Source: Synergistaceae bacterium (GTDB lineage Bacteria > Synergistota > Synergistia > Synergistales > Aminobacteriaceae). From it: a stretch of 64,000 nucleotides of DNA. The stretch is from the NCBI GenBank assembly GCA_017451025.1, contig JAFSSM010000022.1:5420-69419 (forward strand), in the 5' to 3' direction. Below, in pieces: positions 2,290 to 27,788 of this stretch (position 1 is its first letter; every line of letters starts with the position of its first letter). The translations under genes and the position numbers were made by a program. A model generated the notes under the pieces. It searched no databases, was not told where the DNA came from, and worked only from the letters and a program-made list of their open reading frames with translations.

Positions 2290-2751
2290 ATGACGGGCAA
2301 GGATTTGCGCATGAAACGTATTAATCTGGGAGTGAAGCGTGATTACCTGGCGGCGTGTGTCGGAGTATGCATGAGCACCCTCAACCACATAGAGACAGGT
2401 ATAACGCCGATGCATAAGCCGCATTCCCAAAAGTACCTTCATGTGCTTGAAGACATCGAGAACGGCGTAATAGCTGTGCCGGATGACGCGAGATACAACC
2501 TGCCGGTAATGCTTGCGAACAAGCGGCGGTATGAGCCGAAACTGTCTGACGATGAAGTATTGGCACTGCGTGAATGGCGGCTTAAGCTGAACTTGTCGCA
2601 GATGAATGTAGCGCGTGCACTGGGAGTGAATTTGCACTACGTGTGCCAGCGTGAATTGGGGTATACGGCAATGACGCGGGAGGAAGCGAGGCATTTCCGC
2701 AAGTACTACTGCAAAGTAGAGAAGGAGCGCGGGGAATGCCAGACATCTTAG
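2290..2751 (+). CDS. XRE-type HTH protein, two HTH modules
   Basis: LRMKRINLGVKRDYLAACVGVCMSTLNHIETG and LREWRLKLNLSQMNVARALGVNLHYVCQRELG. GGAGG lies 9 nt before the ATG at 2290. Confidence 0.65.
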   Translation: MTGKDLRMKRINLGVKRDYLAACVGVCMSTLNHIETGITPMHKPHSQKYLHVLEDIENGVIAVPDDARYNLPVMLANKRRYEPKLSDDEVLALREWRLKLNLSQMNVARALGVNLHYVCQRELGYTAMTREEARHFRKYYCKVEKERGECQTS

Positions 2752-3614
2752 CACTGCGGGATGAGCGGCTTGAACTGGGTATAACGCAGATGGACGTTGC
2801 GGAAGCAGTCGGTGTTCATGTATCAACTGTCAACAGGTGGGAGACCCTCCAATGCAATCCGACACGCAGACATCTTTGCGCGTACATGTATGCTGTTAAG
2901 GTATGGGCCCGCAATTCAGGGCAGAGGGAGCGGAAGTATCTGCCTCTGCCTCGTGAGGCCGCGGATGTTCCTTTTGTGAGTGAGATTGAGGCTTTGGATT
3001 TGAGAGCCAGGCTCCGGAGAATGGGACTGACTGACCTGGACGTAGCGGCATTGTGGAACGTGAAGAGGTCTACAGCCGGAGGCAAGCTGAACGGCTGGTG
3101 CCGGATGAGAGTGAAAGAGCACACGCAAGGGTTGAATTATCTGTATGAACTTCAGCGTGAGGTCAGGATATTGAAGGAGAGTGTGTACAAGAGGGCAAGG
3201 TGGATGCTGTGGAATTACGCGCAGAGGATGGACAAGCTGAGTGCACTGCGGTGTATGTTAGCGTACCAGCGTGCAGACATGGACTGCCAGGCGCAGAAAT
3301 ATGGAGGTTCACGTCCGAGTGCCGGGAGTTATTCGGACCCTGTAGCGCGGCGTTACGCGGTAATTGAGAGCACGGAACGTGCGGTGCACAGCCTGGAGGA
3401 AAGGGTAATGCCTGTTCACGAAGTGTACATGTCGTTGAAGAACTCGATGAATGAGAACGAGCGCGAAATGTTCCTGATAATGGAGCGTGTGTTTATGTCT
3501 CATGATTCGATTGAACATGTGAGCGCGGACACAGGGAAGAGTGTACGGACGTTGTACCGGCGGAAGTTCGACCTTATCCAGCGCGTAGGCGAGGTGTTAG
3601 GGGATAGGGATTAG
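2736..3614 (+). CDS. HTH protein with ArpU/RinA-like (sigma region-4-like) C-terminus; candidate late-gene activator
   Basis: N-terminal HTH LRDERLELGITQMDVAEAVGVHVSTVNRWETL. C-terminus EREMFLIMERVFMSHDSIEHVSADTGKSVRTLYRRKFDLIQRV. It sits just upstream of the packaging genes. Confidence 0.5.
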   Translation: MPDILALRDERLELGITQMDVAEAVGVHVSTVNRWETLQCNPTRRHLCAYMYAVKVWARNSGQRERKYLPLPREAADVPFVSEIEALDLRARLRRMGLTDLDVAALWNVKRSTAGGKLNGWCRMRVKEHTQGLNYLYELQREVRILKESVYKRARWMLWNYAQRMDKLSALRCMLAYQRADMDCQAQKYGGSRPSAGSYSDPVARRYAVIESTERAVHSLEERVMPVHEVYMSLKNSMNENEREMFLIMERVFMSHDSIEHVSADTGKSVRTLYRRKFDLIQRVGEVLGDRD

Positions 3615-3648
3615 GGGTGAGGAAATTGGCAGAAAAAGGTGTGAAAGG

Positions 3649-3657
3649 TGATATAAT
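3649..3657 (+). promoter_or_regulatory. Extended -10 promoter element TGATATAAT (candidate late promoter)
   Basis: Exact TGnTATAAT match on the plus strand 250 nt upstream of the first Lar-like ORF. No good -35. Confidence 0.4.
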
Positions 3658-3910
3658 GAGTTACACTCACGTAGTTTCTATTTTCACGAGGAAAGTCAGC
3701 CCGATTTTCCACTTCTTTCTGACCGTTACTTCATCAAGAGGACAAAGGGTCGTATGTGAAAGTATGGCCCTGACTCCTATTTCCTCTGCCCTCCCTGTCC
3801 CCTGCCAAAAGGTACTGGGAACGGGGGGCGGTGCGGGTGCGCTAGAGGCTAGCGAGGCCCGATTCCTCTTTAGTTACAGGCAAAAAAAGTTTTGAGGAGG
3901 CATAAAACAG

Positions 3911-4090
3911 ATGGCGTGCCACAAGTGCCAGGAAGGCGGCCCGGTAATCATTCAATGTGCCCTCAAGAAATGGTATGCACAATGCAGTAATTGCGGCTGG
4001 TCAACGCCACATTTTGACGGTGCAGGCCAGGCGTTAGAGTTTTGGAACAGGAGGAAAGACAATGCAGGAAGAGCAGAAGGGGAAAATTAA
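3911..4090 (+). CDS. Lar-like zinc-ribbon protein, paralog 1 (59 aa, below ORF-track cutoff)
   Basis: GAGGAGG lies 10 nt before the ATG. Translation MACHKCQEGG...CSNCGW...ALEFWNRR (CxxC...CxxC, then A-x-x-x-W-N-R-R). Confidence 0.6.
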   Translation: MACHKCQEGGPVIIQCALKKWYAQCSNCGWSTPHFDGAGQALEFWNRRKDNAGRAEGEN

Positions 4091-4277
4091 GCTGAAGCCG
4101 TGTCCGTTTTGCGGCGGTTCCGGAACGCTGACGGCATGGAGCGACCCTAACGGGGTAATCTCTGCACATATACACTGTGATAAGTGCGGAGTAACGGGAC
4201 CGTTCATGAAGACGATTGAGGACGCGGCGGACATGTGGAACACGCGCGATACGGACCGGAGGACGCAGAATGAGTAA
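4062..4277 (+). CDS. Lar-like zinc-ribbon protein, paralog 2
   Basis: KPCPFCGG...CDKCG...AADMWNTR. Overlaps paralog 1 by 29 nt. Confidence 0.7.
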   Translation: MQEEQKGKIKLKPCPFCGGSGTLTAWSDPNGVISAHIHCDKCGVTGPFMKTIEDAADMWNTRDTDRRTQNE

Positions 4278-4449
4278 AAGAACGCTGAAGCCCTGTCCGT
4301 TCTGCGGCGGGCACGCGGAAGTAACGACGAGCTACGAGTATGAAGAAAGTTATCACGCTGTGTGCGAGGACTGCAAGGCACGTTCCGGGTGGTGCCGCAC
4401 GCCTGAGGATGCACGAAAATTGTGGAACATGAGGCCGGAAATATGGTAG
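4270..4449 (+). CDS. Lar-like zinc-ribbon protein, paralog 3
   Basis: Internal ATG at 4270 gives MSKRTLKPCPFCGG...CEDC...ARKLWNMR. Overlaps paralog 2 by 8 nt. Confidence 0.7.
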   Translation: MSKRTLKPCPFCGGHAEVTTSYEYEESYHAVCEDCKARSGWCRTPEDARKLWNMRPEIW

Positions 4450-4655
4450 ACACTGAAGAATTGATGCCCTGCCCTGAATGCGGGTCCAGGCCGGAAGTCA
4501 AAGCATGGGGCAATGGCTATATCGTGGAATGCCTTGTGTGTCATTCATGCTTAGGCGATGAATTCAAGGAAGATGCAACGGGCTGTTTTGAGCCGTTTGA
4601 CAGCGTGGAGCAGGCAATAGCAGGCTGGAATTACTATACGGAGCTGTGGGTATGA
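4443..4655 (+). CDS. Lar-like zinc-ribbon protein, paralog 4 (diverged)
   Basis: MVDTEELMPCPECGS...CLVCHSC...AIAGWNYY. Overlaps paralog 3 by 7 nt. Confidence 0.6.
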   Translation: MVDTEELMPCPECGSRPEVKAWGNGYIVECLVCHSCLGDEFKEDATGCFEPFDSVEQAIAGWNYYTELWV

Positions 4656-4864
4656 GTGAAAAACTGAAACCCTGCCCGTTTTGCGGCGGAAAGCCTCACA
4701 TTTTGGATGACCTGCCTGAATACTGCGATGTGGAACATCCTGGATACTACGTGTATTGCCCGAAAGATAGTCTTTACTTTGGGTATACCGAAGCCTTTGG
4801 CGGGGAATTTAGCACAGAACGTGAGGCAGTCCGTGCGTGGAACCGGAGGGTGAATCATGGCTAA
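4652..4864 (+). CDS. Lar-like zinc-ribbon protein, paralog 5
   Basis: MSEKLKPCPFCGG...AVRAWNRR. ATGA start/stop overlap with paralog 4. Confidence 0.7.
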   Translation: MSEKLKPCPFCGGKPHILDDLPEYCDVEHPGYYVYCPKDSLYFGYTEAFGGEFSTEREAVRAWNRRVNHG

Positions 4865-5084
4865 GACTAGTCCGCATTGCCAGAACAGCAACGGTCCCGA
4901 AAACACGTTGATATGGTGGTGCGATATACCCGGCGAGGAAATAGCCATAACCCGCCGTATAGTAGAGAACTCACCTGCCCTGTACGGCATAGTGAAGTCA
5001 ATTGTGAAGTCCGGACCCGGCGGCAGTGTAATAGCTGAAGCTCGGGAAGTGCTGAAGCTGATAGAGGAGGGTAATAATGCCTGA
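4857..5084 (+). CDS. Hypothetical protein inside the Lar-like array (no zinc ribbon)
   Basis: 75-aa ORF overlapping both neighbours by 8 nt. No recognisable motif. Confidence 0.4.
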   Translation: MAKTSPHCQNSNGPENTLIWWCDIPGEEIAITRRIVENSPALYGIVKSIVKSGPGGSVIAEAREVLKLIEEGNNA

Positions 5085-5439
5085 ATTAAAGCCCTGTCCG
5101 TTCTGCGGGCATGAAGTGCAAATGTCATATCGAGATGTCCAAATCTATTGGGCAGAGCCCGGCCAAGTTGCTCGTGTCTGGGAGATAAAGTGTCCTGAAT
5201 GCGGCGCGCACATGGAAGACCACTACGAACACCACCTCTATGATAAATGGAACGGATTAACGCGCCTGGACCGGTGCCCGATATGCGGGGATTACATCCG
5301 GCGGATAGAACCGTACGAGGATTACGATGAAGGCACATATTATTATGTGGAATGCCGGAAATGCGGGCTGAGCACGCGGAAATTCTCTGACTCGATGGAA
5401 GCGCGGGTGTTTTGGAATGCCAGGCACGGACGGGGTTAA
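5077..5439 (+). CDS. Lar-like protein with two zinc-ribbon modules, paralog 6
   Basis: Module 1 is KPCPFCGH...CPECG...LYDKWNGL. Module 2 is CPICG...CRKCG...ARVFWNAR. Confidence 0.65.
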   Translation: MPELKPCPFCGHEVQMSYRDVQIYWAEPGQVARVWEIKCPECGAHMEDHYEHHLYDKWNGLTRLDRCPICGDYIRRIEPYEDYDEGTYYYVECRKCGLSTRKFSDSMEARVFWNARHGRG

Positions 5440-5475: not shown

Positions 5476-5772
5476 ATGAACGTAACACAAAACGCAGACC
5501 TGATTGAAGCCAAAACCAGATTAACCAACATCAAGGCAGACCAGGCCGCTTTGAAATTAAAGATTATGCAGGGAGAATTTGTTTCCATTGCTGAAGTGAA
5601 CAAACAGCAGGCAGAAGCTATTTCGCGGGTCCGTACTAAAATGCTCGCAATCCCTGCAAAATTATCACGCAAACTTTCAGGGCAGGAGTTCTCTCCTCAG
5701 GAAGTAAACGTCATTCTGACTGAGGCAGTCAACGAAGCCTTAAACGAACTGGCTGGTGAAACACAGGCATGA
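5476..5772 (+). CDS. Terminase small subunit, Nu1 C-terminal-like (no N-terminal wHTH)
   Basis: Sits immediately upstream of, and overlaps, the GpA-type large terminase. KTRLTNIKADQAALKLKIMQGEFVSIAEV...AIPAKLSRKL resembles the Nu1 C-terminal half. Confidence 0.55.
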   Translation: MNVTQNADLIEAKTRLTNIKADQAALKLKIMQGEFVSIAEVNKQQAEAISRVRTKMLAIPAKLSRKLSGQEFSPQEVNVILTEAVNEALNELAGETQA

Positions 5773-7562
5773 ACTTTGAGCTGTTCCGTCCTCCTCCAGA
5801 ATTAAGCATCTCGGAATGGGCTGACGAATACCGTTATCTTTCTGCAGAAGGCAGTCCGGAACCCGGCAAATGGTCAACCTCGCGTGCTCCCTACCAGCGC
5901 GCAATGATGGATGCCGTCAAATCCCACGAACGCGTAGTAATTATGACGGCGGCACAGGTCGGCAAAAGCGAGATACTCCTTAACACAATAGGCTACTACA
6001 TTCATTATGAGCCATGCCCGATGTTAATGGTTCAGCCCACGCTCGAGATGGGCAAAGACTTCTCCAAGAAAAAATTCACTCCAATGTTACGCGATACACC
6101 CGTGTTATCCTGCCTAATCGACCTCAAGGCACGGACTAAGGACAACAATATTCTGGATAAACGTTTCGGCAATTCAGCGATAGTGTGCATAGCGGGAGCA
6201 AATTCCCCTGCAGGCCTCGCAAGCAGGTCAATACGGATACTTCTGCTAGACGAGACAGACAGGTACCCTCCGAGTGCAGGCAATGAAGGAGACCCTATCT
6301 CGTTAGCCATGAAGCGCACCACGAATTTTTGGAACCGCAAGATAATTCAGGTAAGCACACCCACGCACAAAAATTCACCGATTTCTGAGGCGTTCGAACT
6401 TTCCAGCAAAAACGAATGGACCGTACCCTGCCCTAAATGCGGGAAATATCAGCCGTATATCTGGGACAATTTCCTTTACCGTGAACGTACTGAACCCGTA
6501 ATGAAGTGCCAGTATTGCGGCCAGGAGAGTGCGGAGCGCGAGTGGAAGCGCGGCACCGGGAAATGGGAGCAGGGCTGTGAATCGGACATAGCGGGTTTCC
6601 ACATGAATGCATTTGCTTCACCGTGGGTAACTTGGCCGGAACTTGTGGCTAATTACTTTGAGGCGTATTCATACGGTGAAGAGAAACTGAAGGTGTGGAT
6701 AAACACTGTGCTGGGAGAACCGTACGAGAACCCTGAAGGGGTAATTGAAATAGAGAGCATTCACGAGAACTGCGAGGAGTACGGAGCGCAGGTACCGGAT
6801 GAAGTGTTAGTGCTGACGTGCGGAGTGGACACGCAGGATGACCGTTTGGAGCTTGAAGTAGTAGGCTGGGGGATGGGCAATCAGTCATGGGGAATAGAGT
6901 ACAAGATTTTCTACGGCGATACCAGCCAAAAAGAAGTGTGGGAACAACTCGACAGCTATTTATGCCAGGCGTTCAAGAAAGCAACGGGAGAAGCACTCCT
7001 CGTTTCCTGTACGTGTATAGATTCGGCAGGGCATAACACGGACATGGTGTACCGTTTCTGCCATTCCCGATTGAAGCGGCGGATATTCCCGATAATAGGC
7101 AGAGGGCAGTGGGGCAGGCCGAGCGTAACGAAGCCAAGCCGGAATAACCGTTACCGTGTGCCGTTGTTCACGCTTGGAGTGTCGACGATTAAGGGAATGC
7201 TTCACACGCGGCTGCGAGCCCAAAAAGGACAGGGCGGTTATTGTCATTTTCCGAAGGACAAGGGCACGGGGTATGACGAAATATATTTTGCGGGACTGCT
7301 CAGCGAGCGGATGGTAATGAAGCGTCTCGGGGGGCGTGAGGTGGTACGCTGGGAACAGCGGGACACGAAGACGCGGAATGAACCGTTGGACTGCCGTGTG
7401 TACGCAATCGGAGCGTACGAGATATTCTCGCCGGATTTACGGAAGTATGAAGCAGGGTTGAACGTGAAGCGCAAGCCGGTGAAACACGAGGAAGTTCCGG
7501 CCAAGAAAGAGCAGATAGTGAGAGCACCGAAACGCCGTGTGATAAGGGGGATAATGTGGTAG
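5769..7562 (+). CDS. Terminase large subunit, lambda GpA family
   Basis: 597 aa. N-terminal ELSISEWADEYRYLSAEGSPEPGKWSTSRAPYQRAMMDAV is typical of GpA. Walker A-like AAQVGKSE. Confidence 0.9.
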   Translation: MNFELFRPPPELSISEWADEYRYLSAEGSPEPGKWSTSRAPYQRAMMDAVKSHERVVIMTAAQVGKSEILLNTIGYYIHYEPCPMLMVQPTLEMGKDFSKKKFTPMLRDTPVLSCLIDLKARTKDNNILDKRFGNSAIVCIAGANSPAGLASRSIRILLLDETDRYPPSAGNEGDPISLAMKRTTNFWNRKIIQVSTPTHKNSPISEAFELSSKNEWTVPCPKCGKYQPYIWDNFLYRERTEPVMKCQYCGQESAEREWKRGTGKWEQGCESDIAGFHMNAFASPWVTWPELVANYFEAYSYGEEKLKVWINTVLGEPYENPEGVIEIESIHENCEEYGAQVPDEVLVLTCGVDTQDDRLELEVVGWGMGNQSWGIEYKIFYGDTSQKEVWEQLDSYLCQAFKKATGEALLVSCTCIDSAGHNTDMVYRFCHSRLKRRIFPIIGRGQWGRPSVTKPSRNNRYRVPLFTLGVSTIKGMLHTRLRAQKGQGGYCHFPKDKGTGYDEIYFAGLLSERMVMKRLGGREVVRWEQRDTKTRNEPLDCRVYAIGAYEIFSPDLRKYEAGLNVKRKPVKHEEVPAKKEQIVRAPKRRVIRGIMW

Positions 7563-7593
7563 GGGTTAGTGGTTAGGAAAGGAATGATGTTTT

Positions 7594-7821
7594 ATGACAG
7601 AACGGGAGATGTTAATACAAAGACTGAACCTGTACCAGAAGGCAGAACGAGATGTAACGCTTCACGGCCAGACGGTAGAACTTGAGGGGATGCGGATAAC
7701 ACGAGCAAGCCTTGAAGATTTGCGGAAGGAGATAAGGAACTTGAAGCAGGAACTATCATTGATGGATAAACAGGAAGCACAAAGAAAGAGGAGCCGTATC
7801 CGGGCAATAATTCCATTATGA
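7594..7821 (+). CDS. Head-tail joining protein gpW-like
   Basis: 75-aa ORF between GpA terminase and the lambda-type portal (lambda order Nu1-A-W-B). Confidence 0.6.
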   Translation: MTEREMLIQRLNLYQKAERDVTLHGQTVELEGMRITRASLEDLRKEIRNLKQELSLMDKQEAQRKRSRIRAIIPL

Positions 7822-8066
7822 CATACACGCAGACCACTAAGGAAATAGTTTATGACGACGGATTTTTGGTGAAGGAACATGTGCATGTATCGCTGAAACT
7901 CCGGAGATGTCCGTTTTGCGGCAAGAAGGGGAAAGTTATTCACACATCCGGTGAAGACCAGGCAGACATGATAAGCATTGAGTGTGAGGGATGCGGGGGA
8001 GCGTGCGGGGAATACCTGACGCACGAGGAAGCCGCAGTTGCGTGGAACAGGAGAGCTAGAGGTTAG
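7818..8066 (+). CDS. Lar-like zinc-ribbon protein, paralog 7 (outlying copy)
   Basis: RRCPFCGKKG...CEGCGG...AAVAWNRR. ATGA overlap with the gpW-like ORF. Confidence 0.65.
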   Translation: MTYTQTTKEIVYDDGFLVKEHVHVSLKLRRCPFCGKKGKVIHTSGEDQADMISIECEGCGGACGEYLTHEEAAVAWNRRARG

Positions 8067-8371
8067 CTGGCCTTGACGGCTAAGTACACCTGAACTCCCG
8101 CAACGATTATTGCAGACAGCCCGATAATCCCCCCAAGCAGGAATTGCCAGAATGTCCCGCGCGACGAAAATCCTGAAACGTACGCAACAATTGTATCGGC
8201 TAATCCTTCTGCTTGCCGGGACAACGCTTTGACATCACCGCGTATCTCCGCGATTTCTACACGCATCTGCGATAACTGCGACTGAGTCCTCGCTTCACTG
8301 GCTTCCATTTTTGTCTCCATGCGTTTCATGATTTCGTTGAACATGTCCTTGCGCACATAAACTTCATCCAT
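8063..8371 (-). CDS. Small coiled-coil protein with C-terminal TM anchor (XhlA-like architecture), antisense paralog 1
   Basis: ATG at 8371 with GAGGTG upstream. MDEVYVRKDMFNEIMKRME..., TM FLLGGIIGLSAIIVAGVQVYLAV. Its stop overlaps the Lar-7 stop (TTAG). Confidence 0.65.
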   Translation of the reverse strand: MDEVYVRKDMFNEIMKRMETKMEASEARTQSQLSQMRVEIAEIRGDVKALSRQAEGLADTIVAYVSGFSSRGTFWQFLLGGIIGLSAIIVAGVQVYLAVKAS

Positions 8372-8395
8372 AGTTTTCACCTCTAGATATATTGA

Positions 8396-8420
8396 TTGGG
8401 GATGTAATTATTATATCATG
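8396..8420 (-). promoter_or_regulatory. Conserved 25-nt module, copy A (minus strand TGATATAAT-N6-A-TCCCCAA; overlaps portal ATG)
   Basis: Plus strand TTGGGGATGTAATTATTATATCATG. See findings. Confidence 0.45.
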
Positions 8421-9836
8421 CAGATAACTAACTCCGGTTATTCCGAACACGGCGCTTCCAGACGCAAAACCAGCCTCATCAAGTGGCACTCATCCAGCAA
8501 ATCACCTCACGAGGACATCAGCGAAAATTCAGCACTCTTGCGTGAACGCTCCAGAGACCTCTACATGGGCGGCGGACCCTTAGGACGCGGTGCCATCGAC
8601 AGAATTGCCCTCAACGCTATCGGCAGAGGCCTAAAGCTCAACGTCAGGATTGACCCTGCCCTGCTGAACATGTCCGAACAGCAGGCCTCAGCTTGGAGTG
8701 CCCGCACCGAAGCATTGTTCGACTATTGGGCATCAAGCAGGAACGCTCACTCCGGAAGGGAGTTATCCTTTTACGATTTGCAGTGCTTAGCCTTAAAGTC
8801 TATCCTTATTGACGGCGAAGTCCTCGCAATTATCGAGTACACACCGAATATCTCAATCAGGCTCATTGAGGCCGAACGCATTATGACACCGCCCGACAGG
8901 AACAGCAAACTCATTGACGAAGGAGTTGAACTCAATGAATGGGGAGACCCTGCCGCATTCCACATCGCAAACCGCAACCCGAACGCCGAATTATTGGGAC
9001 AGAAACATTTGGACTGGGTCAGGATTCCGGTTACCAATTCAACACTGCACCTGTTTATCCGTGAACGTATCGGCCAGCACAGAGGCGTACCCTTCCTCGC
9101 TCCCGTAATCGTACAGCTCAAACAGTTATCACGTTACACGGAAGCCGAACTTATGGCGGCAGTTGTTGCGGGGATGTATTCTGTGTTCTTCGAGCACCCG
9201 CCGCGCGAGGACGGCATGTTAGGGAGCGACGAATACGCGTCAGAACAGGGATATGGTGAGACCAGCGGGCTTGAAGGGTTAAGCACTGAGATGATGTACG
9301 GGAGCGTGATAGACCTTCCCGACGGAGTGAAGGCCAGCAGTTTATCGCCAGGCCGTCCAAACCAGAACTTCAACGGTTTCATTGAGGCACTTGCGCACCA
9401 AATCGGGGGAACTCTGGGCATTCCGGAAGAGTTATTGTTCCTGCACTTCACGGCCAGCTATTCAGCATCCAGGGGTGCACTCCTCGAAGCATGGAAGGTG
9501 TTTAAGTATTGGCGGGCATGGTTTGCGGAGAATTTCTGCCAGCCGGTTTATGAGGCATGGCTTGAGGAACAGGTCAATGCAGGCAGGATTGAGGCACCGT
9601 TATACTGGCGGGATGATTTCACGCGGAGCCAGTATGCTTGGGCTGAATGGGTGGGACCGAGTCAGGGGCAGTTGAACCCTGTGCAGGAAGTTGAAGCGGC
9701 GGTAATGAAGATACAGAACAACTTATCGACATATCAGCGTGAATGCAGTGAATTGACGGGCGAGGACTGGGACTTGGTGATGAGTGCACTCACCCGTGAA
9801 CGAATGAAATTACCACAAGCGGATGAAAATACTTAA
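8418..9836 (+). CDS. Portal protein, lambda family
   Basis: 472 aa, positioned after gpW. Sequence character of the lambda gpB family. No AGGAGG-type SD. Confidence 0.85.
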   Translation: MQITNSGYSEHGASRRKTSLIKWHSSSKSPHEDISENSALLRERSRDLYMGGGPLGRGAIDRIALNAIGRGLKLNVRIDPALLNMSEQQASAWSARTEALFDYWASSRNAHSGRELSFYDLQCLALKSILIDGEVLAIIEYTPNISIRLIEAERIMTPPDRNSKLIDEGVELNEWGDPAAFHIANRNPNAELLGQKHLDWVRIPVTNSTLHLFIRERIGQHRGVPFLAPVIVQLKQLSRYTEAELMAAVVAGMYSVFFEHPPREDGMLGSDEYASEQGYGETSGLEGLSTEMMYGSVIDLPDGVKASSLSPGRPNQNFNGFIEALAHQIGGTLGIPEELLFLHFTASYSASRGALLEAWKVFKYWRAWFAENFCQPVYEAWLEEQVNAGRIEAPLYWRDDFTRSQYAWAEWVGPSQGQLNPVQEVEAAVMKIQNNLSTYQRECSELTGEDWDLVMSALTRERMKLPQADENT

Positions 9837-9932
9837 TGCCGCGACTATCCACGCTAGGGCCGCAAACATTAATGCGGTATCAGCAACTTTGTTAAGTCTG
9901 TTCAGCTTGCGTTTGCGTTCTTCGTCGGTCAT
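9810..9932 (-). CDS. Mini single-TM protein (40 aa), below ORF-track cutoff
   Basis: ATG lies 1 nt after the stop of the upstream minus-strand gene, with GGGGGTG upstream. MTDEERKRKLNRLNKVADTALMFAALAWIVAALSIFIRLW. Overlaps the portal 3' end by 27 nt. Confidence 0.45.
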   Translation of the reverse strand: MTDEERKRKLNRLNKVADTALMFAALAWIVAALSIFIRLW

Positions 9933-9935
9933 TGG

Positions 9936-10286
9936 CTACACCCCCAATAATGTTTTTATTGCTGGCAAATAAGGTGCAGCAGTTATCAGTACGGCTATAA
10001 CTCCTGCAATTACACTAATTATTGTCCAGCGGCGGCCTGCCGCATTCTCCATAGCATCTAGCCTGTCCCGGATTGCCTTGATGTCTGACGCTAAACTCTC
10101 TGACTCGCGTTTGCTCTCTGCACGGTAAACTTCAAGTTTTGCGTCGCTGTCTGCCTTGTAGGCTTTAACGTCAGCCCGTATTTCTGCAATTAACGCGGCA
10201 GTCCTGGCCTCGCTTGCGGCATTCTGGGCTTCGATGCGGCGGATAATTTCCTGGAACACATCATTGCGTACATATTCATTGTCCAT
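9936..10286 (-). CDS. Small coiled-coil protein with C-terminal TM anchor, antisense paralog 2
   Basis: ATG at 10286 with GAGGTG upstream. MDNEYVRNDVFQEIIRRIE..., TM WTIISVIAGVIAVLITAAPYL. Confidence 0.65.
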   Translation of the reverse strand: MDNEYVRNDVFQEIIRRIEAQNAASEARTAALIAEIRADVKAYKADSDAKLEVYRAESKRESESLASDIKAIRDRLDAMENAAGRRWTIISVIAGVIAVLITAAPYLPAIKTLLGV

Positions 10287-10313
10287 CAAATTACACCTCA
10301 TTATTTTTTTGCT

Positions 10314-10338
10314 TTAGGGATGTGAAAATTATAGCATG
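10314..10338 (-). promoter_or_regulatory. Conserved 25-nt module, copy B (minus strand TGCTATAAT-N6-A-TCCCTAA; overlaps protease ATG)
   Basis: Plus strand TTAGGGATGTGAAAATTATAGCATG. Confidence 0.45.
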
Positions 10339-11127
10339 TACAAAATTATCAATCACAACGGCAATAACGAAATTCTCCTTTACAGCCTCATTGACTACGG
10401 CATTACCGCCAATAAGGTAATCGATGCCGTCAATTCCTTTGACCCGGACAAAACTATTACCCTCCGCATTAACTCAGAAGGCGGAGACGTTTTCGATGGT
10501 ATCGCACTCTACAATTACCTCAAGGACCGTAACGTCAACGTCATCATTGACGGAGAATGTTCTTCGAGTGCAAGCATTATAGCTATGGCCGGTAAAACTA
10601 TCACCATGAAGCGCGGAAGTCTCCTCATGATTCATAACCCTATGACCTGTGCCTCGGGAGACAGCGAAGCTTTCAAAGCCTATGCAGACATGCTCGGCAA
10701 AATCACCAGCAGCGTAATTGCTATCTATCAGTCCAGGTCTAACCTCAACGCTGACCAGATACGCGACCTCATGGCCGCAGAAACTTGGCTTGAGCCGGAA
10801 ATGGCTAAAGAGTACGGATTTATCGACGACTTCGAGAGCGTAACCTTTGACGAAGCATTGAACGGCCGTTACGACGAAGGGGTAAGGGCAGAGCGCGAAC
10901 GCATAAGGGAGCTTGACGAAATGTACACTCCCGCCCGCGCAATAATCCTCAACAAAGCCAAGTACATCGACCCCCGTTCCGCAAGGGATGTTGCACTGGA
11001 AATTCTGCGTGCAGAGGCGAAAAACACAGCACTTCACCCTAACGGAATATCCCTTCCTTCCGGTTTCAGCGACCAGATGATGAACGACACAATAGACAGC
11101 ATTATTTCAAGAAAGAGAGGATTTTGA
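10336..11127 (+). CDS. Head maturation protease, ClpP-related serine protease
   Basis: GGDVFDGIALYNYLK...SSASIIAMAG...MIHNP. Positioned between portal and capsid genes. Confidence 0.85.
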   Translation: MYKIINHNGNNEILLYSLIDYGITANKVIDAVNSFDPDKTITLRINSEGGDVFDGIALYNYLKDRNVNVIIDGECSSSASIIAMAGKTITMKRGSLLMIHNPMTCASGDSEAFKAYADMLGKITSSVIAIYQSRSNLNADQIRDLMAAETWLEPEMAKEYGFIDDFESVTFDEALNGRYDEGVRAERERIRELDEMYTPARAIILNKAKYIDPRSARDVALEILRAEAKNTALHPNGISLPSGFSDQMMNDTIDSIISRKRGF

Positions 11128-11130
11128 CGA

Positions 11131-11505
11131 ATGGCGGAATATTACAGGAAATTGACCGAAATCACCGAAATTCCGGCACCTGACGATTTGGTGCAGGGAG
11201 GGTATGTTGCAGACATCGTTGCTCTGGCCTCGCCCGGCGACTACAAGCGCGGGCTTGTCCTCATGAGCGGCGAAGACGGGTTTATCCCCGCAACAAGTGC
11301 AGGTATCGGCAGTGCTGATGAGGCATGCATTCTCGCGGAAAACATCTCATTCACCGAAGGAACTTGCAGTGCCAGCGCATACTTTGGGGGGATTATCAAT
11401 TCCGAGAGGGTTATTCTGGGCTATGAGACTGAAAGCGACAATCACTCTGAGCTTATTTCGGCGGTAAAACCTGTGCTTCGTGCACACAAGCTGTTTTTGG
11501 TCTAA
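11131..11505 (+). CDS. Head decoration protein (gpD-position)
   Basis: 124-aa ORF between protease and E-type capsid gene. Assigned mainly by position. Confidence 0.5.
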   Translation: MAEYYRKLTEITEIPAPDDLVQGGYVADIVALASPGDYKRGLVLMSGEDGFIPATSAGIGSADEACILAENISFTEGTCSASAYFGGIINSERVILGYETESDNHSELISAVKPVLRAHKLFLV

Positions 11506-11519
11506 GGAGGACTTCCATC

Positions 11520-12542
11520 ATGAACTACTATGAACCTAAATTTTTACGTGCGGCTATCAGGAAAATTACTCCGGCACGCCAGTTCTTCAGGCATAGATTT
11601 TTCGCAGACACAATGACTTTCCCCACTAAGTCCGTTACTTTCGAGTATGCACGCAGTCCCCGTGTAGTTCTGCCCTACGCAAACGAGGAAGCAGGCAGTG
11701 TGAACGTTGCACGCTCGGGGTATCAGGCACTCACATTTACGGCACCGTTGCTCTCAGGCCACAGGATAATCACCCCGTCAACACTTAACGATAAGCTGTT
11801 CGGTGAATCACAGTGGGACAGCGGCTATACCCCTGAGGACAGGGCGCGCGAGCTTGCGGTTATGGACTTGATGGAACTGCAAGACAGCCTTTACCGTCAG
11901 GAAGAGTATATGTGCGCAAGGTTGATGCAGGACGGGAAATTGACGGTGGACAGTCCTGGCGTGAAGGCGGAAATAGATTACGGGTTTACTCAGATTGAGA
12001 CCGTAACGAACGCCAACAAATGGACAACTACTTACGATATTCTGGGAAAACTGTTGAAGTGTGCGCGTGAGCTCCGCAAAAACGGGATAAACCCTGACAC
12101 ATTGATAGTGGGACATGAAGTGAGCGAGGCAATCAACAAGAATGAAGGGGTATTGAAGCTCCGCAATGACCAGTGGGTGAATATTCCGGAGCCTGGCAGT
12201 CTGGAAGACGGGATAACCTATGTGTGCCAGCTTCGTGCACCTGGAATTTACCTGAATGTGCTTGAGTATGACGAATACTATTCGGACAAGGACGGAAATA
12301 TCCTGCCGCTTGTTGACCCTAAGACGGCAATCCTGATGTCAAGCAGGGACCGCAACATGATGCTTTACGGAGCGGTTGTGTACCTGGACAAGTCTGGGGA
12401 GTATGTGTCGGAAATGGCGGAATATGTGCCTTACGTGGTGAATGAGTATGACCCGCCGGTGAAGAAGTTAGTGGTGAGTTCGCGTCCCTTGCCGATGCCT
12501 AGGGACATTGAGAGCTGGATAGTGTTAAAGGATTTGGTGTAG
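11520..12542 (+). CDS. Major capsid protein, lambda gpE family
   Basis: 340 aa. AGGAGG SD. N-terminus and length typical of the capsid E family; follows the decoration gene. Confidence 0.8.
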   Translation: MNYYEPKFLRAAIRKITPARQFFRHRFFADTMTFPTKSVTFEYARSPRVVLPYANEEAGSVNVARSGYQALTFTAPLLSGHRIITPSTLNDKLFGESQWDSGYTPEDRARELAVMDLMELQDSLYRQEEYMCARLMQDGKLTVDSPGVKAEIDYGFTQIETVTNANKWTTTYDILGKLLKCARELRKNGINPDTLIVGHEVSEAINKNEGVLKLRNDQWVNIPEPGSLEDGITYVCQLRAPGIYLNVLEYDEYYSDKDGNILPLVDPKTAILMSSRDRNMMLYGAVVYLDKSGEYVSEMAEYVPYVVNEYDPPVKKLVVSSRPLPMPRDIESWIVLKDLV

Positions 12543-12575
12543 GGTGAGTACCTGAGGAGTGAGAAATACTCACCC
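12542..12575. terminator. 9-bp hairpin between convergent capsid and antisense genes
   Basis: GGGTGAGTA-16 nt-TACTCACCC. No clear U-tract on either strand. Confidence 0.3.
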
Positions 12576-12586
12576 TGTCAATGGCT

Positions 12587-12811
12587 TTAACCTGCACTGC
12601 GCGACAGAAAATACATGACGACAGCCAAGCCAATCTGCATAGCTGCAAATACTCCTGCTATTATTGAGACAGTTATTCCCCAAAAATTAACTTGCCTGTT
12701 CACGGTGTCTTTCAGATCATCTATGCGCTGATTAGTTTTCTCGTCCAGCATGAGCAAAGTATCCTGCTCTGCGCCGTAGACATCTTTGCGGACAAAATCC
12801 TTCTCGTTCAT
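12587..12811 (-). CDS. Small coiled-coil protein with C-terminal TM anchor, antisense paralog 3
   Basis: ATG at 12811 with GAGGTAG upstream. MNEKDFVRKDVYGAEQD..., TM ITVSIIAGVFAAMQIGLAVVMYFL. Confidence 0.6.
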   Translation of the reverse strand: MNEKDFVRKDVYGAEQDTLLMLDEKTNQRIDDLKDTVNRQVNFWGITVSIIAGVFAAMQIGLAVVMYFLSRSAG

Positions 12812-12816
12812 GTTAT

Positions 12817-12990
12817 CTACCTCTGCAATAACAGCCACACAGAAAACACGAACGACAACGTCAGCGCTGAAAATGAGAACAATGAACAGCCAATCAGGAA
12901 TCTGCGCATTTTTTGCCAGTCCTTTTTGTCCTGCTCAACACTTGCTGCTATTTTTTGGGACAATTCTTCTATCGTCGGAGCTATACGCAT
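12817..12990 (-). CDS. Small single-TM protein (57 aa), below ORF-track cutoff
   Basis: ATG at 12990 with GAGGTG upstream. MRIAPTIEELSQKIAASVEQDKKDWQKMRRFLIGCSLFSFSALTLSFVFSVWLLLQR. Its stop lies inside the SD of the next minus-strand gene. Confidence 0.5.
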   Translation of the reverse strand: MRIAPTIEELSQKIAASVEQDKKDWQKMRRFLIGCSLFSFSALTLSFVFSVWLLLQR

Positions 12991-13015
12991 AGTACTTCAC
13001 CTCATTAATTTTTAT

Positions 13016-13040
13016 TTGGGAATGGAGAGATTATAACATG
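13016..13040 (-). promoter_or_regulatory. Conserved 25-nt module, copy C (minus strand TGTTATAAT-N6-A-TTCCCAA; overlaps ATG at 13038)
   Basis: Plus strand TTGGGAATGGAGAGATTATAACATG. Confidence 0.45.
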
Positions 13041-13394
13041 AACTTTCAGGGCTGGGACTTCCGCTCTATCTATGAACAGCCACCCCCTGACTTGATGGAG
13101 GCCGAAGCATTCTTCGCCGCCTTCGCCAAATTCCACGACATTGACGGCACAAGCATTGAGTGCATTTTCACGAGGGCTAAACGCCAGCCCGTAGCAATAA
13201 TTCCCGGAGCAAACGGGGAGAACATAGACGGAATAACTTCGTTTACCAGCGTGTTAATCGTGAAGGACGAGGATATATCGGGAGCCGAACAGGGAGGAAG
13301 TTTGAGGATAGACGGTGTGCACTGCCGGATAATGACGGTGTCGCACCCGATTATGGGCATTACCAGGATGGAACTTGAGGGTTATGCGGGGTAA
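13038..13394 (+). CDS. Head completion / head-tail joining protein (gpFII-position), hypothetical
   Basis: 118 aa, first gene after the capsid gene. Assigned by position and size only. Confidence 0.35.
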   Translation: MNFQGWDFRSIYEQPPPDLMEAEAFFAAFAKFHDIDGTSIECIFTRAKRQPVAIIPGANGENIDGITSFTSVLIVKDEDISGAEQGGSLRIDGVHCRIMTVSHPIMGITRMELEGYAG

Positions 13395-13441
13395 TTTGAC
13401 TTAATTATCTTCGCAGCATTCTTTCGAAAGGTGATTATACC

Positions 13442-13993
13442 ATGATTAGGTTTTCCTTCACGGCTAACACACGGGACCTGCGCTACCTTTCCCGAACGGA
13501 CAAGCTCCTCCAAAAAGCCCTGTACATGGCCAAGAAAGACACAATGCGTCTCCTCAAAAACGAGGCGGCCCGCCAGGTCAGCGCACAATACTGGCTTACG
13601 CAGAAACAGGTCAAGGAAGCAATTCGTGAGGAGCCTGCGGGAATACGCGTCAGGTCCGGAATGCTGTCGCTCGAAAAGTACAAGATTTCCCCCACGCACC
13701 CGGCTGGCGGCAAACGTAAACTTCTCGGTGCAGTCAAACGTTCCGGAGGCCTTAAGCCATTAGGCAACGCATTCCTCAGGCCTGCACGCGGAGGCGGCTT
13801 CAAGCCGTATATGCGTCCCTCAAACGGCAAAGGCAGGCCGAAGCTCATAACCGGACCGTCAATCGCTCAGACAGTGGGCAACCCCGAAATTATGGAGAGA
13901 CTGCAGGCACGGGCAGGCGAGACATTCCAGAACAGGGCAGATTTCTACGTGAGCAGACTCGGAATTTTTGCACCTAAAGGGGGCTGGAGATAA
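13442..13993 (+). CDS. Virion morphogenesis / minor tail protein (gpZ-position), hypothetical
   Basis: 183 aa, basic. Position and size fit lambda gpZ-like proteins; not verified. Confidence 0.35.
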   Translation: MIRFSFTANTRDLRYLSRTDKLLQKALYMAKKDTMRLLKNEAARQVSAQYWLTQKQVKEAIREEPAGIRVRSGMLSLEKYKISPTHPAGGKRKLLGAVKRSGGLKPLGNAFLRPARGGGFKPYMRPSNGKGRPKLITGPSIAQTVGNPEIMERLQARAGETFQNRADFYVSRLGIFAPKGGWR

Positions 13994-14007
13994 TTAACAG
14001 ATTAACT

Positions 14008-14558: not shown

Positions 14559-14807
14559 ATGGATGACCAGAGAATATATATCGGGCCGAACGTTAGGACG
14601 CTCGGATTATTGCGGAACCAGGTATTTATTGAGGGACTGCCCGGCCAAGTGCAGGATGCAGCTGCGAAATTTCCGGAAGTTGCGGACCTGATTGTGCCTG
14701 TGTCAGAATTTGACGAAGCAGAGCGTAAGGCACATACGGCAGGAGAGCACCTGCACAGGGTGTATCAGGAATTTGTGCAGGCACTCGGCAAACAGGGCAA
14801 GGATTAA
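14559..14807 (+). CDS. Hypothetical protein
   Basis: 82-aa ORF with AAGGAG SD. Confidence 0.4.
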   Translation: MDDQRIYIGPNVRTLGLLRNQVFIEGLPGQVQDAAAKFPEVADLIVPVSEFDEAERKAHTAGEHLHRVYQEFVQALGKQGKD

Positions 14808-15205
14808 CGGGCTAATTTTTCCTTGATGGCTTCCTGCAGGACCCGGGAAAAATTGAGGCCTGCTCTTTTGCCCTCGTCAATCATCCATTTCGGGAGGGTA
14901 ACCATTTTGTTGACGGACTTGTTCGCAATTTTTGCGCGGACCGGGGGCATGAATGCCTCAACTGGTGCAACAATCTGGTTAGCCCTGAGGTTTTTCTTGA
15001 GTCCCAGAATGTCGGAGGGTCCAGGAATTTGGTCGTTGTCCTGCCCGCCGCCCCAGAGGAAGCCTTCCAGTGCTTCGCGGGCATTATGCAGTGCTTCTTC
15101 GATGGTGTTTCCGCTGGTAATACGGCCGGGCAAATCAGGGAAACGTACGATTACGCCTTCTTCCGTGAAGCTGAACACGGCGGGAAAAATGTATCTGTCT
15201 TTCAA
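14804..15205 (-). CDS. HicB-like antitoxin-fold protein with C-terminal RHH (no HicA partner found)
   Basis: TTG start with AAAGGAG SD. FPAVFSFTEEGVIVRFPDLPGRITSGNTIEEALHNAREALEGFL, plus C-terminal TLPKWMIDEGKRAGLNFSRVLQEAIKEKL. Confidence 0.65.
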   Translation of the reverse strand: MKDRYIFPAVFSFTEEGVIVRFPDLPGRITSGNTIEEALHNAREALEGFLWGGGQDNDQIPGPSDILGLKKNLRANQIVAPVEAFMPPVRAKIANKSVNKMVTLPKWMIDEGKRAGLNFSRVLQEAIKEKLAR

Positions 15206-15416
15206 GATTTAACACGCTCCTTTAGGTCTTAATGTTTTATGATATTTTGACGGGGAGCAGGTCCCGTGCTATCTGAGGCCTGCAAGCGTCAAGGTATCTC
15301 TTTCACCGGCAAGGCGGAGATTTCTTGTCATCCCGAACTGTCGGTTTTTCTGCTGGGATGTATATATTCATCATATGTAACTGTACAGACAAGTATATAT
15401 AAGGGAGAGATTATCC

Positions 15417-16124
15417 ATGAATTACGGAGACATAGTAGAGCTCGGCCGGCACAGATTGATGTGCGGAGACGCAAGGAAGCGTGAGGACATTGAGCGGCTT
15501 CTGGACGGTGAGAGCGTTGACCTTGTGCTGACTGACCCGCCCTACGGGATGAAGTGCCAAGACTCTCGGGGGTACTGCGGAGGTCATAACGTGTTAATGA
15601 GGGGGATAAAGCAACGTTATCGTTCACTCATAGGCGACGACTCTCAGGACACAGCCCGCGAATACTGGCAGGTCTCCTCTGACCTCACCGACAATCATAT
15701 TATCTGGGGCGGCCAGTACTTCGCGCATTTCCTGCCCATTTCAGGCGCATGGATTTTCTGGGACAAGCACACAGGAACTAACGACTTCAGCGACGGCGAG
15801 CTTGCATGGTGTTCGCGGGGCAAACGCATACGCTACTATTCGCACCTGTGGAACGGGGTCTGCCGTCAAGGGAGCTATGCCCTCAACCCCAGACCGCGCG
15901 TTCACCCCACGCAGAAACCCGTAGAACTTCACGCGAAGATACTCGAGGACTTCTCCGCTGAAGGAGACCTCATCCTTGACTGCTTCGGCGGGAGCGGTAC
16001 TACACTCATTGCCTGCGAGATTACCGGCAGAACATGTTTCATGATGGAATTATCACCCGAATACTGCGACGTTATCATTAACCGCTACAACTCTTTGACC
16101 CGAAATTCCCTCATGCTACAATAA
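15417..16124 (+). CDS. DNA methyltransferase (N6-adenine/N4-cytosine class, DPPY motif), no cognate nuclease nearby
   Basis: VDLVLTDPPYGM and HPTQKPVELHAKIL...DCFGGSGTTLIACE. Confidence 0.85.
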   Translation: MNYGDIVELGRHRLMCGDARKREDIERLLDGESVDLVLTDPPYGMKCQDSRGYCGGHNVLMRGIKQRYRSLIGDDSQDTAREYWQVSSDLTDNHIIWGGQYFAHFLPISGAWIFWDKHTGTNDFSDGELAWCSRGKRIRYYSHLWNGVCRQGSYALNPRPRVHPTQKPVELHAKILEDFSAEGDLILDCFGGSGTTLIACEITGRTCFMMELSPEYCDVIINRYNSLTRNSLMLQ

Positions 16125-18618: not shown

Positions 18619-18643
18619 TTTGGGATGAATTTATCTTATCACA
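18619..18643 (-). promoter_or_regulatory. Conserved 25-nt module, copy G (minus strand TGATAAGAT-N6-A-TCCCAAA), upstream of the tube gene
   Basis: Plus strand TTTGGGATGAATTTATCTTATCACA, followed by AAGGAG and the tube ATG at 18660. Confidence 0.4.
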
Positions 18644-18659
18644 AAAAAGGAGTCCACCA

Positions 18660-19181
18660 ATGAATATAGTCCCCGAAAAACTCACCAAGTTCCAAATCTA
18701 CAACGACGATAACGCTCTGCTCGGTATCGCCGACGGGAACTTCCCTTCCCTGGAGTTCCAGACTTCCGAAATTAAGGGAGCCGGACTCGTCGGCACAATC
18801 GACTCTCCCGGACGCGGCGGCTTCTCCTCTATCGTCGTTACCCTCAACTGGAGAATCACTACCCCCGAATTTATGGCACTCGCCGCCCCTAAAGGCCACA
18901 ACCTCGACATGTACGCTGAACACCTCTACATGGACGCTGGTGCAGGCGAATACGTCTCCAAACAGTTCCACATCTACATGCGCGCATTCACCAAGAAGCT
19001 CGACATGGGAGAACTGGCGGACATGGACAGCCAGGGCGCAAGCACCGAACACGAAGTGTATTACATCAAGGTCGAAATTGACGGCAAGGAGCACATCGAA
19101 ATCGACAAGTACAACTACATCTACAAGGTTGACGGCACTGATTACCTCGAAGATATGCGCCATGCCCTCGCTATGAACTAA
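18660..19181 (+). CDS. Tail tube protein
   Basis: Internal ATG at 18660 with AAGGAG SD. MNIVPEKLTKFQIYNDDNALLGIADGNFPSLEF... follows the sheath gene. Confidence 0.75.
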   Translation: MNIVPEKLTKFQIYNDDNALLGIADGNFPSLEFQTSEIKGAGLVGTIDSPGRGGFSSIVVTLNWRITTPEFMALAAPKGHNLDMYAEHLYMDAGAGEYVSKQFHIYMRAFTKKLDMGELADMDSQGASTEHEVYYIKVEIDGKEHIEIDKYNYIYKVDGTDYLEDMRHALAMN

Positions 19182-22952: not shown

Positions 22953-23380
22953 CTTACGGCAATTACTTTTCCGGCGGAGTTGGACTGCTTGGTGCATTCT
23001 TGTCGTGGTACCTGGGAGTTTTGGACGGCACTGTGAAACTCCTGGTAGTTATGGCCGTGCTGGACCAGGTTTCGGGATTATTGAAAGCGTCAGTTCTGCG
23101 GAAATGGTCTAGTGAGGCAGGGTTTCACGGCATCGCCAAGAAAGTATTCATGTTTATGCTTGTGGGGATAGCCAATGTCATTGATAAGGAGATGCTCGGC
23201 GGAACTGATGTGCTGCGGGATGCTGTGAGCTTGTTCTACATTGCCAACGAGGGGATAAGCATAATCGAGAACGCTATAGAGAGCGGTGCACCGGTGCCCG
23301 AAGGCTTCAAGGAATGGTTTATTTCGTGGCGGAACAAGAAGTTAATCAGCCATAATGTGCCTGGCGACAGCGAGGATTAA
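22949..23380 (+). CDS. Holin (TcdE / phage holin_4-type, multi-TM)
   Basis: ATGA overlap with the endolysin. LLVVMAVLDQVSGLLKA...GIAKKVFMFMLVGIANVIDK...FYIANEGISIIEN. Confidence 0.75.
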   Translation: MTYGNYFSGGVGLLGAFLSWYLGVLDGTVKLLVVMAVLDQVSGLLKASVLRKWSSEAGFHGIAKKVFMFMLVGIANVIDKEMLGGTDVLRDAVSLFYIANEGISIIENAIESGAPVPEGFKEWFISWRNKKLISHNVPGDSED

Positions 23381-23448
23381 CGGGCCGCGAATATTCACAG
23401 CCTGCTCACCTCAACGGCACATACACGTATTTCTTCACCATTTTTGTT

Positions 23449-23473
23449 TTGGGGATGTGGTCATCATAACACA
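23449..23473 (-). promoter_or_regulatory. Conserved 25-nt module, copy F (minus strand TGTTATGAT-N6-A-TCCCCAA), with no minus-strand gene behind it
   Basis: Plus strand TTGGGGATGTGGTCATCATAACACA. It points into the holin 3' end. Confidence 0.4.
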
Positions 23474-25777: not shown

Positions 25778-25779
25778 AT

Positions 25780-27775: not shown

Positions 27776-27788
27776 GAATGTACCTCCT

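Follow-up and report, generated by a model that had tools for sequence, protein, structure and literature searches.

The stretch of DNA analysed here, a window of 64,000 nucleotides (nt) from contig JAFSSM010000022.1 of an uncultured Synergistaceae bacterium, contains a prophage at positions 1 to ~33,240 and host genes from ~33,250 onward (ferritin, radA, aconitase, ybaB-recR, rpsB-tsf and uvrD). In the prophage, a primase and helix-turn-helix (HTH) regulators are encoded upstream of the head genes, which are lambda-like and include TerS (5476), TerL (5769-7562), gpW (7594), the plus-strand portal gene (8418-9836), a plus-strand ClpP-type head protease gene (10336-11127), the decoration protein (11131) and the major capsid protein (11520). 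The contractile tail is P2/Mu-like, with sheath (16746), tube (18660), tape measure (19679), gpD (~23457-24584), gp25 (24581), gpJ (26226) and the plus-strand baseplate gene gpI (28175-29185), followed by fibres and XkdX (33101). Small minus-strand genes lie between these late genes, and a short recurrent sequence module lies upstream of them. These modules are probably near-consensus host promoters that drive backward, moron-like cassettes.

Seven full copies of the module are found in the window, all facing the minus strand, so that they are direct and never inverted with respect to one another. Copy A (8396-8421) has its YRTG at 8417-8420, its -10 hexamer TATAAT at 8410-8415 and its predicted transcription start site (TSS) at the A of position 8403, with the start ATCCCCAA; the start-codon CAT of the portal gene (8418-8420) forms part of its TRTG element. 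Copy B (10314-10339; TATAAT at 10328-10333, predicted TSS 10321, start ATCCCTAA) overlaps the protease ATG at 10336, and copy C (13016-13041; TATAAT at 13030-13035, predicted TSS 13023, start ATTCCCAA) covers the ATG of gene 13038. Copy D (28152-28178) reads TGATAAAAT at 28167-28175, has a 5-nt discriminator and a predicted TSS at 28161 with the start ATCCCCCCAA, and overlaps the gpI ATG at 28175. Copy E (18619-18644; TAAGAT at 18633-18638, predicted TSS 18626) lies in the gap between sheath and tube, where it adjoins the Shine-Dalgarno sequence (SD) and ATG of the tube gene (18660) with no overlap. Copy F (23449-23474; TATGAT at 23463-23468, predicted TSS 23456) probably sits at the junction of holin and gpD rather than within gpD, because homology to gpD starts only at residue 40 of the long open reading frame (ORF). 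A sequence-only reading of the window had listed these six copies, and all ten strings that it quoted are found where it placed them. It missed the seventh, copy G (46949-46974), which lies in host DNA as the ybaB-recR promoter, reads TGATAGAAT at 46963-46971 and has a predicted TSS at 46956 with the start ATCCCAAA.

The same reading had placed a module at every strand switch. This is true of the switches at A, B, C and D, and is overstated elsewhere. At the hicB switch there is only a degenerate minus-strand copy (15353-15377; …TGATGAATATATACATCCCAG), upstream of a decayed hicA and hicB. Upstream of the PAAR-gpU-spike operon there is only a partial copy (26090-26105, or 26090-26112 at its full extent on the minus strand), which reads GCTAAAAT-T-ATCCCCAAAAAAGGAG and is D-like with a shortened discriminator. 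Downstream of copy E there are only a 5-codon ORF and a doubtful 61-amino-acid (aa) ORF, and downstream of copy F an 18-codon remnant. Two further partial copies had been proposed. One of them, at 13429-13444, does contain an extended -10, TGGTATAAT (13434-13442), over the ATG of gene 13442, and lacks the ATCC start. The other, at 3597-3620, is no copy at all; an HTH gene (2736-3614) ends there, and three repeats of a 7-bp unit (TAGGGGA TAGGGAT TAGGGGT, 3598-3618) lie at its stop codon.

The family stands far above chance in a motif search with shuffled controls of the kind that the sequence-only reading had proposed. The pattern TTGGGGATGNNNNNATTATANCATG, with up to three mismatches, has 5 matches in the window, compared to 0.01 expected from 100 dinucleotide shuffles. 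With a leave-one-out position weight matrix (PWM), the copies with a 6-nt spacing score 20.9-29.7 bits each, while the maximum of 20 shuffled windows is 17.2, and each of these copies ranks directly behind the other five among ~128,000 positions. The plus strand of the window contains no full-module PWM match and no ATCCC[CA]AA 8-mer.

On the minus strand, the module consists of YRTG-n-TAnnAT, then six nt (five in D), and then C-A-T-C/T-C-C-(C)-A-A. All seven copies read TGnTAnnAT, which places a TG one base before a -10 hexamer that keeps the A at -11 and the T at -7, and no -35 element is recognisable upstream of any copy. A YRY start is found about 7 nt past the hexamer, as CAT at a distance of six nt in six copies and as TAT at a distance of five nt in D. 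In copies A, B, C, D and G (ybaB), the -10 is followed by an A-rich stretch, a GAGGTG or GGAG SD and, at a distance of 34-42 nt, an ATG. When copies from different sites are compared, identity is 0.88 for the -10, 0.89 for the CAT and 0.68 for the initial transcribed region (+3 to +8), figures that appear higher than they are because the aligned set was partly chosen with the PWM; the discriminator and the leader reach 0.32 and 0.36. This block-wise conservation across sites, together with an identity of only ~34% between the proteins encoded downstream of A and B, suggests that the blocks are kept by selection and are not the product of recent copying. The seven leaders are predicted to be unstructured (folding z-scores of +0.1 to +1.5), with no stable or conserved fold of the kind expected of a riboregulator. 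Sequestration of the SD by the CCCC run was discarded on inspection, since on the minus-strand RNA neither GAGG nor GGAG can pair with CCCC.

Extended -10 promoters of the sigma70/sigmaA type work independently of a -35 element, and it is generally known of them, beyond the TRTG element, that transcription starts 7 nt after the hexamer. The module resembles this class (TGn or TRTG "-16 region") in TGnTAnnAT, in the A at -11 and the T at -7, in YRTG and in the lack of a -35. It differs from the standard form by adding a conserved TCC(C)AA initial transcribed sequence, which is common to several promoters of the same host. A TRTG element upstream of the -10 is described in PMC12641261, as is the YRY "start element" of bacterial promoters, in which the TSS is centred 7 bp past the -10 (Kuo et al. 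2025, PMC12641261). The C(-1)A(+1)T(+2) of the module lies at the distance expected for a start element, unlike which its conservation reaches +5/+8 (CC(C)AA). The 49 species of Kuo et al. include none from this phylum, and the term "Synergist" has no occurrence in PMC12641261.

The genes downstream of the modules encode mostly products of 40-131 aa, nearly all of which contain a single strongly hydrophobic segment, located at the C-terminus or close to it, or centrally in the D and D2 proteins. The cargo of A (8063-8371, minus strand) is a protein of 102 aa that combines a coiled coil at the N-terminus with a transmembrane (TM) helix at the C-terminus, and the 3' end of its gene overlaps the upstream plus-strand gene by 4 nt. 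The cargo of B (9810-10286, minus) comprises a 116-aa paralogue of the A protein (9936-10286) and a 40-aa TM protein (9810-9932), whose gene runs antisense to the portal gene and overlaps its 3' end. The cargo of C (12587-12990, minus) comprises a 57-aa TM protein (12817-12990), which groups with the 51-56 aa "MxIR" proteins of related phages, and a 74-aa protein (12587-12811). The 102-aa, 116-aa and 74-aa products form one family, here termed VRKDVF, defined by an N-terminal xxVRKDVF, a coiled coil and a C-terminal TM helix. The cargo of D (27380-28133, minus) is a pair of paralogues, D and D2, each with a single TM helix, which are 114 aa (27789-28133) and 131 aa (27380-27775) long. The A and B proteins are ~34% identical, and paralogues overall are 24-34% identical.

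Copies E and F look like decayed cassettes, the remnant after F (23342-23398, minus; 18 codons, VNIRGPL...) belonging to the MxIR small-TM family. Downstream of the degenerate copy lies a gene for a HicB-like antitoxin (14804-15205, minus), preceded by an apparent decayed hicA with no intact ORF (15205-15417); in the related contig L015, hicA and hicB are both intact. Searches of the cargo against Pfam, PHROG, NCBIfam and PADLOC gave nothing above threshold except HicB, and the same family searches on the minus-strand structural operon identified gpU, PAAR and a baseplate protein. No loci for VRKDVF proteins were found in IMG/VR or in the metagenome collection.

The host itself uses the same form of promoter. 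TGnTAnnAT has 22 matches in the window, 12 of which lie in the 4 kb of non-coding DNA (6% of the total), an 18-fold enrichment, and all but three of these 12 are within ~150 nt upstream of a start codon on the same strand. The host promoters of this extended -10 form are likewise without a visible -35. In a host sample composed of window positions 33,253-64,000 and another 6.6 kb of the same 248-kb contig, 11 extended -10 sites lie upstream of genes. AT[CT]C follows exactly 6 nt after the -10 at 4 of these 11 sites, a small number of sites, compared to a background of 0.0086 per position. The four sites are upstream of aconitase (38228, ATCCACA), ybaB (ATCCCAAA), desulfoferrodoxin (35018, ATTCAC) and ornithine carbamoyltransferase (OTCase; L114, 18772; ATCCAAACC). 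The ybaB gene (46614-46925, minus), which encodes a nucleoid-associated protein, lies downstream of copy G and is followed by recR. The host DNA also contains two promoters that stand back to back between the desulfoferrodoxin gene and gene 35054 and whose extended -10 boxes, TGCTAGAAT and TGATAGTAT, overlap (35011-35026).

A conserved 5' AUCCCCAA leader had been proposed for the phage modules. The conserved start is indeed seen, and it is not specific to the phage; given its presence at 4 of 11 host sites, the AUCCCCAA leader appears to be a host-wide start preference in its fullest form. The module is thus best read as the host's own near-consensus, -35-independent promoter and not as a phage-specific signal. 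In IMG/VR, the module pattern has 31 matches, ~23 of them distinct, compared to 20 and 10 for two scrambled start motifs. This frequency is at most 1.5-3 times that of the scrambled controls, which indicates that the module is not a universal feature of phages. The 29 matches in the metagenome collection include none from this phage family.

Related phage contigs were reached through homologues of the portal protein. A portal-based search of IMG/VR gave nothing, and one of species-representative genomes gave a single Synergistaceae contig, which has no cassettes. Among the relatives with a portal identity of 79-82%, L008 has the module and a 102-aa A-type gene before the portal gene, the module and a 55-aa TM gene before the protease gene, and, before the tube gene, a copy syntenic to E with nothing but a non-TM ORF of 31 aa downstream. 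In L110, the module stands before the portal gene and before the homologue of gene 13038. In L010, there is no cassette A and gpW abuts the portal gene; before its protease gene, the module is kept and is followed by a 20-codon remnant of the 55-aa gene of L008. In L016 and L003 (62% portal identity), gpW, portal and protease are contiguous, with GGTGA-type SDs and no module; L016 does have a copy syntenic to E, before a gene for a 55-aa TM protein. In L015 and L112 (~70% portal identity), copies run antisense to the main operon, one covering a methyltransferase start codon and another before hicA-hicB. Moreover, four antisense cassettes at the junction of chaperone and tape measure have a -10, a spacing of 5-7 nt and AT[CT]CC; three of the four were missed by the PWM and one has a weak score.

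Cassettes are thus extra genes between conserved neighbours, missing from some relatives (L003 and L016, and cassette A from L010) and present in others (L008 and L110). A motif search in related prophages had also been suggested by the sequence-only reading; the module is present with cassettes and absent from cassette-free junctions. In related Synergistaceae phages, the module comes and goes with the antisense cassette. Rearrangements of another kind are also seen. In L013, L015, L111 and L112 (~70% portal identity), the block of gpW, small genes and portal is inverted relative to terminase, protease and capsid (e.g., L015 8588-11461), and the PAAR-gpU-spike block of the window (24889-26076) likewise lies on the opposite strand. 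Inverted repeats or an invertase as the cause of the strand switches were considered and rejected, since the module copies are all direct and the inverted gpW-portal blocks of the relatives have different flanks.

These observations point to the following arrangement. Each module would act on its own, without a -35, as an extended -10 promoter for a housekeeping-type sigma factor, from which host RNA polymerase transcribes leftwards, and would be composed of TRTG/YRTG, one base, TAnnAT, a variable 6-nt discriminator, C(-1)A(+1)T(+2) and the initial transcribed CC(C)AA. The predicted transcript would have an AUCCC(C)AA start, a short, A-rich, unstructured leader, a GAGGTG or GGAG SD and the ATG of a small accessory gene. 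We infer that transcription starts at the predicted A and that the promoter is active in the lysogen. The small accessory genes would be moron-like cassettes inserted backwards between late structural genes, and a near-consensus host promoter would account for the same sequence also driving the host gene ybaB. As a best guess, TCC(C)AA would serve start-site selection or promoter escape and keep the 5' end unstructured; a site bound by a phage regulator is the less favoured role. The sequence-only reading had already suggested that the antisense genes are driven by extended -10 promoters that need no -35, and this idea is supported by the intergenic enrichment, the fixed spacing of 34-42 nt, the linkage to cassettes and the block-wise conservation.

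The cassettes have much in common with phage morons such as gene 15 of HK97 and bor and lom of lambda. Both are accessory transcription units between conserved late genes, are present in some close relatives and absent from others, and often encode a small inner-membrane protein; the junction that harbours HK97 gene 15 is one cassette hot spot here (PMC3594210). Each first cassette gene has a module upstream as its predicted own promoter. Unlike morons, all cassettes here are antisense to the late operon, with up to seven in one prophage; they have no terminators that could be found, and their promoter extends over the codon at which the next late gene starts. Their GC content is 0.44-0.51, slightly lower than the 0.49-0.55 nearby. 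The arrangement is tidy but fairly ordinary for morons, and is not a new kind of element or regulatory principle.

Several points weigh against this account, in addition to the small host sample and the inflated conservation values given above. The TSS positions and the promoter activity are predictions from sequence. Nothing like an intrinsic terminator is found where the cassettes end, and their 3' ends reach into the late genes upstream, so that transcripts would run antisense into those genes, which is unusual for a classical moron. In addition, the partial copy at 26090 precedes an essential structural operon, the minus-strand PAAR-gpU-spike genes, and the inverted gpW-portal block of the ~70% relatives has a TATAAT-N6-ATC promoter. 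Host-type promoters thus also stand before structural blocks, which means that they need not be specific to lysogeny and that backward units are not limited to accessory genes. Finally, 24 nt identical to copy A (ATGATATAATAATTACATCCCCAA) occur in an otherwise unrelated IMG/VR contig, L031. This match lies at 1100-1130 of UViG_3300017648_000198, upstream of an XRE-type HTH gene.

A bolder version of the promoter account is possible but doubtful. It holds that Synergistaceae have a promoter element of their own close to the start site, CATCC(C)AA, which acts as an extended start element alongside a TRTG-extended -10 with no -35 and whose strongest form the cassettes adopted. The promoters, fused to late-gene starts that have no SD and lacking terminators, would also create obligatory head-on conflicts that gate expression of portal, protease and baseplate. 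Transcriptional interference or antisense control could also be the main role of the modules, with head-on firing that shields the prophage against leaky transcription of the late genes or tunes their expression and with the ORFs secondary. The missing terminators and the overlapping 3' ends agree with this, as does the persistence of copies with a decayed ORF (F, E and the 20-codon case before the L010 protease gene). Nevertheless, interference as the main role is unlikely: most copies keep an intact SD and an ORF with a conserved TM segment, paralogous families are maintained, close relatives do well without cassettes at the same junctions, and the same promoter drives ordinary host genes.

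The position of the modules at late-gene starts invites a plus-strand reading. The start codons of portal, protease, gene 13038 and gpI lie in the module CATG, and the sequence-only reading had held that all four genes lack an AGGAGG-type SD. This is correct for portal, for gpI and for protease, where nothing clearer than a GTGA 10 nt upstream is found, whereas gene 13038 has a GGAG in the module, 10 nt before its ATG. The CTCTCC discriminator of copy C is GGAGAG on the plus strand, and copies of the C type thus supply a plus-strand SD from the discriminator (GGAG in the window, AAGGAG in L110). The simplest account is that a cassette was inserted right at the ATG, packed against the next late gene, such that the CATG of the start codon doubles as the (Y)RTG of the promoter and the former SD was displaced. 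The products of portal, protease and gpI are low-copy virion or assembly proteins.

The alternative is a bifunctional module, which would also act as a plus-strand promoter for leaderless portal and protease mRNAs (TG-n-AATTAT/GAAAAT-N6-ATG) or as an SD-independent initiation region. The genes without an SD would fit, and in A, B, the A and B copies of L008 and the B copy of L010 the ATG lies exactly 6 nt past a plus-strand TG-n-hexamer with the A at -11 and the T at -7. Many promoters are bidirectional owing to the symmetry of the -10 element (Warman et al., bioRxiv 10.1101/2020.01.31.928960); the module resembles them in its place between divergent genes and in its nearly self-complementary TATAAT, and the host pair at 35011-35026 is one true back-to-back pair with the same 16-bp geometry. 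However, no conserved -10 is found on the plus strand: the bases of the plus-strand hexamer are among those that vary most within the module, and the A at -11 is missing from C, D, E, F and G and from several relatives. A symmetric 18-bp partner -10 would start transcription just downstream of the late-gene ATG. Not one of 18 surveyed promoter-like sites is placed at a leaderless distance from a start codon, and copies E, F and ybaB, the hicAB copy of L015 and the E and TMP copies of L008 are not at a plus-strand start codon. Copies of the C type give their plus-strand gene a normal GGAG or AAGGAG, and cassette-free relatives, which have no module, need no such element, their junctions before portal and protease being of the ordinary GGTGA or AAGGAG type. 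The plus-strand function therefore gains no support and is improbable. A plus-strand ATG soon followed by a stop had also been described in each copy. D has no such mini-ORF, and in several relatives it is long; it is a by-product of the CAT at the TSS and the TTATAA in the -10. A reading of GGGA as a plus-strand discriminator was likewise dropped, there being no consistent -10 upstream of GGGGA.

The stoperators of mycobacteriophage L5 are short, asymmetric motifs that are repeated in one orientation in the intergenic gaps of lytic operons. By analogy, CATCCC(C)AA could be an operator, at which a host or phage protein bound to +1 to +8 would co-regulate the cassettes and ybaB, or at which late read-through would be blocked in the lysogen. 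The motif is asymmetric, always points the same way with respect to the late operon, occupies short gaps between genes and is better conserved than the adjoining discriminator. The prophage also codes for three HTH proteins and many Lar-like zinc-ribbon proteins. Unlike L5 stoperators, which are promoter-independent sites in lytic operons and at a repressor-controlled early promoter, the motif is welded to a -10 box at a fixed distance, travels with the cassettes and is never found alone at a late promoter region. It is absent from cassette-free late-gene junctions and present at unrelated host promoters, housekeeping ones included (ybaB, aconitase, OTCase and desulfoferrodoxin). Moreover, it has no dyad or repeat partner, and the sole tandem GGGGAT-like array (3598-3618) is in coding sequence. 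An operator thus has little to recommend it. Least likely is shared ancestry only, in which one promoter-plus-gene cassette was recently duplicated in the phage lineage and the TCC(C)AA start is unselected: the A, B and C2 (74-aa) proteins are paralogous, as are D and D2, but these paralogues are 24-34% identical compared to 68-89% for the promoter blocks and ~32% for the bases between them, and unrelated cargo (HicAB, the MxIR family, host ybaB and OTCase) has the same start.

Further features of the window lie outside the cassettes. About seven paralogous small genes for Lar-like zinc-ribbon proteins (PF14354) stand in a row before the terminase (4062-5439), and one more lies before cassette A (7818-8066); this expansion is common to the relatives. 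Just upstream of the first Lar-like and late genes is a GC-rich conserved non-coding element, AGGTACTGGG…GGCCCG…TAGATACAG-AAAAAA-AGTTTTG, at 3790-3900 in the window, ~3450-3570 in L008, ~6690-6780 in L010, ~7150-7240 in L016 and ~14570-14700 (minus) in L015. The element may serve as a cos site or form a structured RNA; it has no Rfam match, and Rfam and tRNA scans of the whole window were empty. Ahead of the late region, a plus-strand extended -10 (3645-3665; GGTGATATAAT-GAGTTAC-A) probably serves the long plus-strand operon as its promoter, and the corresponding sites read TGTGATAGAAT-GGGGAAC-ATC in L008 and TGTGGTACAAT-GCGGAAC-ATC in L010. A megablast of 7500-14000 against GenBank phages gave no match.

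At the right end of the prophage, a DUF2400 gene (33253-34065) adjoins XkdX. The same pairing occurs inside the related phage contig L111 (20297-20776), which appears circularly permuted, and the right boundary of the prophage may therefore lie past 33,240. The host DNA encodes an IS605-family OrfB/TnpB (Cas12f-like) protein (57210-58523). It also has short tandem repeats downstream of host promoters and upstream of glycosyltransferase- or methyltransferase-type genes, at 43623-43672 and 51641-51675 in the window and at ~18860-18960 and ~21810-21835 in L114. Their units are GGTCT (x9.8), ATCACGC (x5), CTCACAG (~15 copies) and GGCTGTC (x3), and they are possible phase-variation tracts.

The modules provide a first sequence-level picture of promoters in this uncultured Synergistaceae host, with a TRTG-extended -10, no -35 and an ATCC start. 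Under this host-type promoter, the prophage family carries several backward-facing accessory cassettes, mostly for small membrane proteins. The precise coordinates of the predicted TSSs are testable with metatranscriptomes, and the cassettes are good candidates for functions expressed in the lysogen, such as superinfection exclusion.

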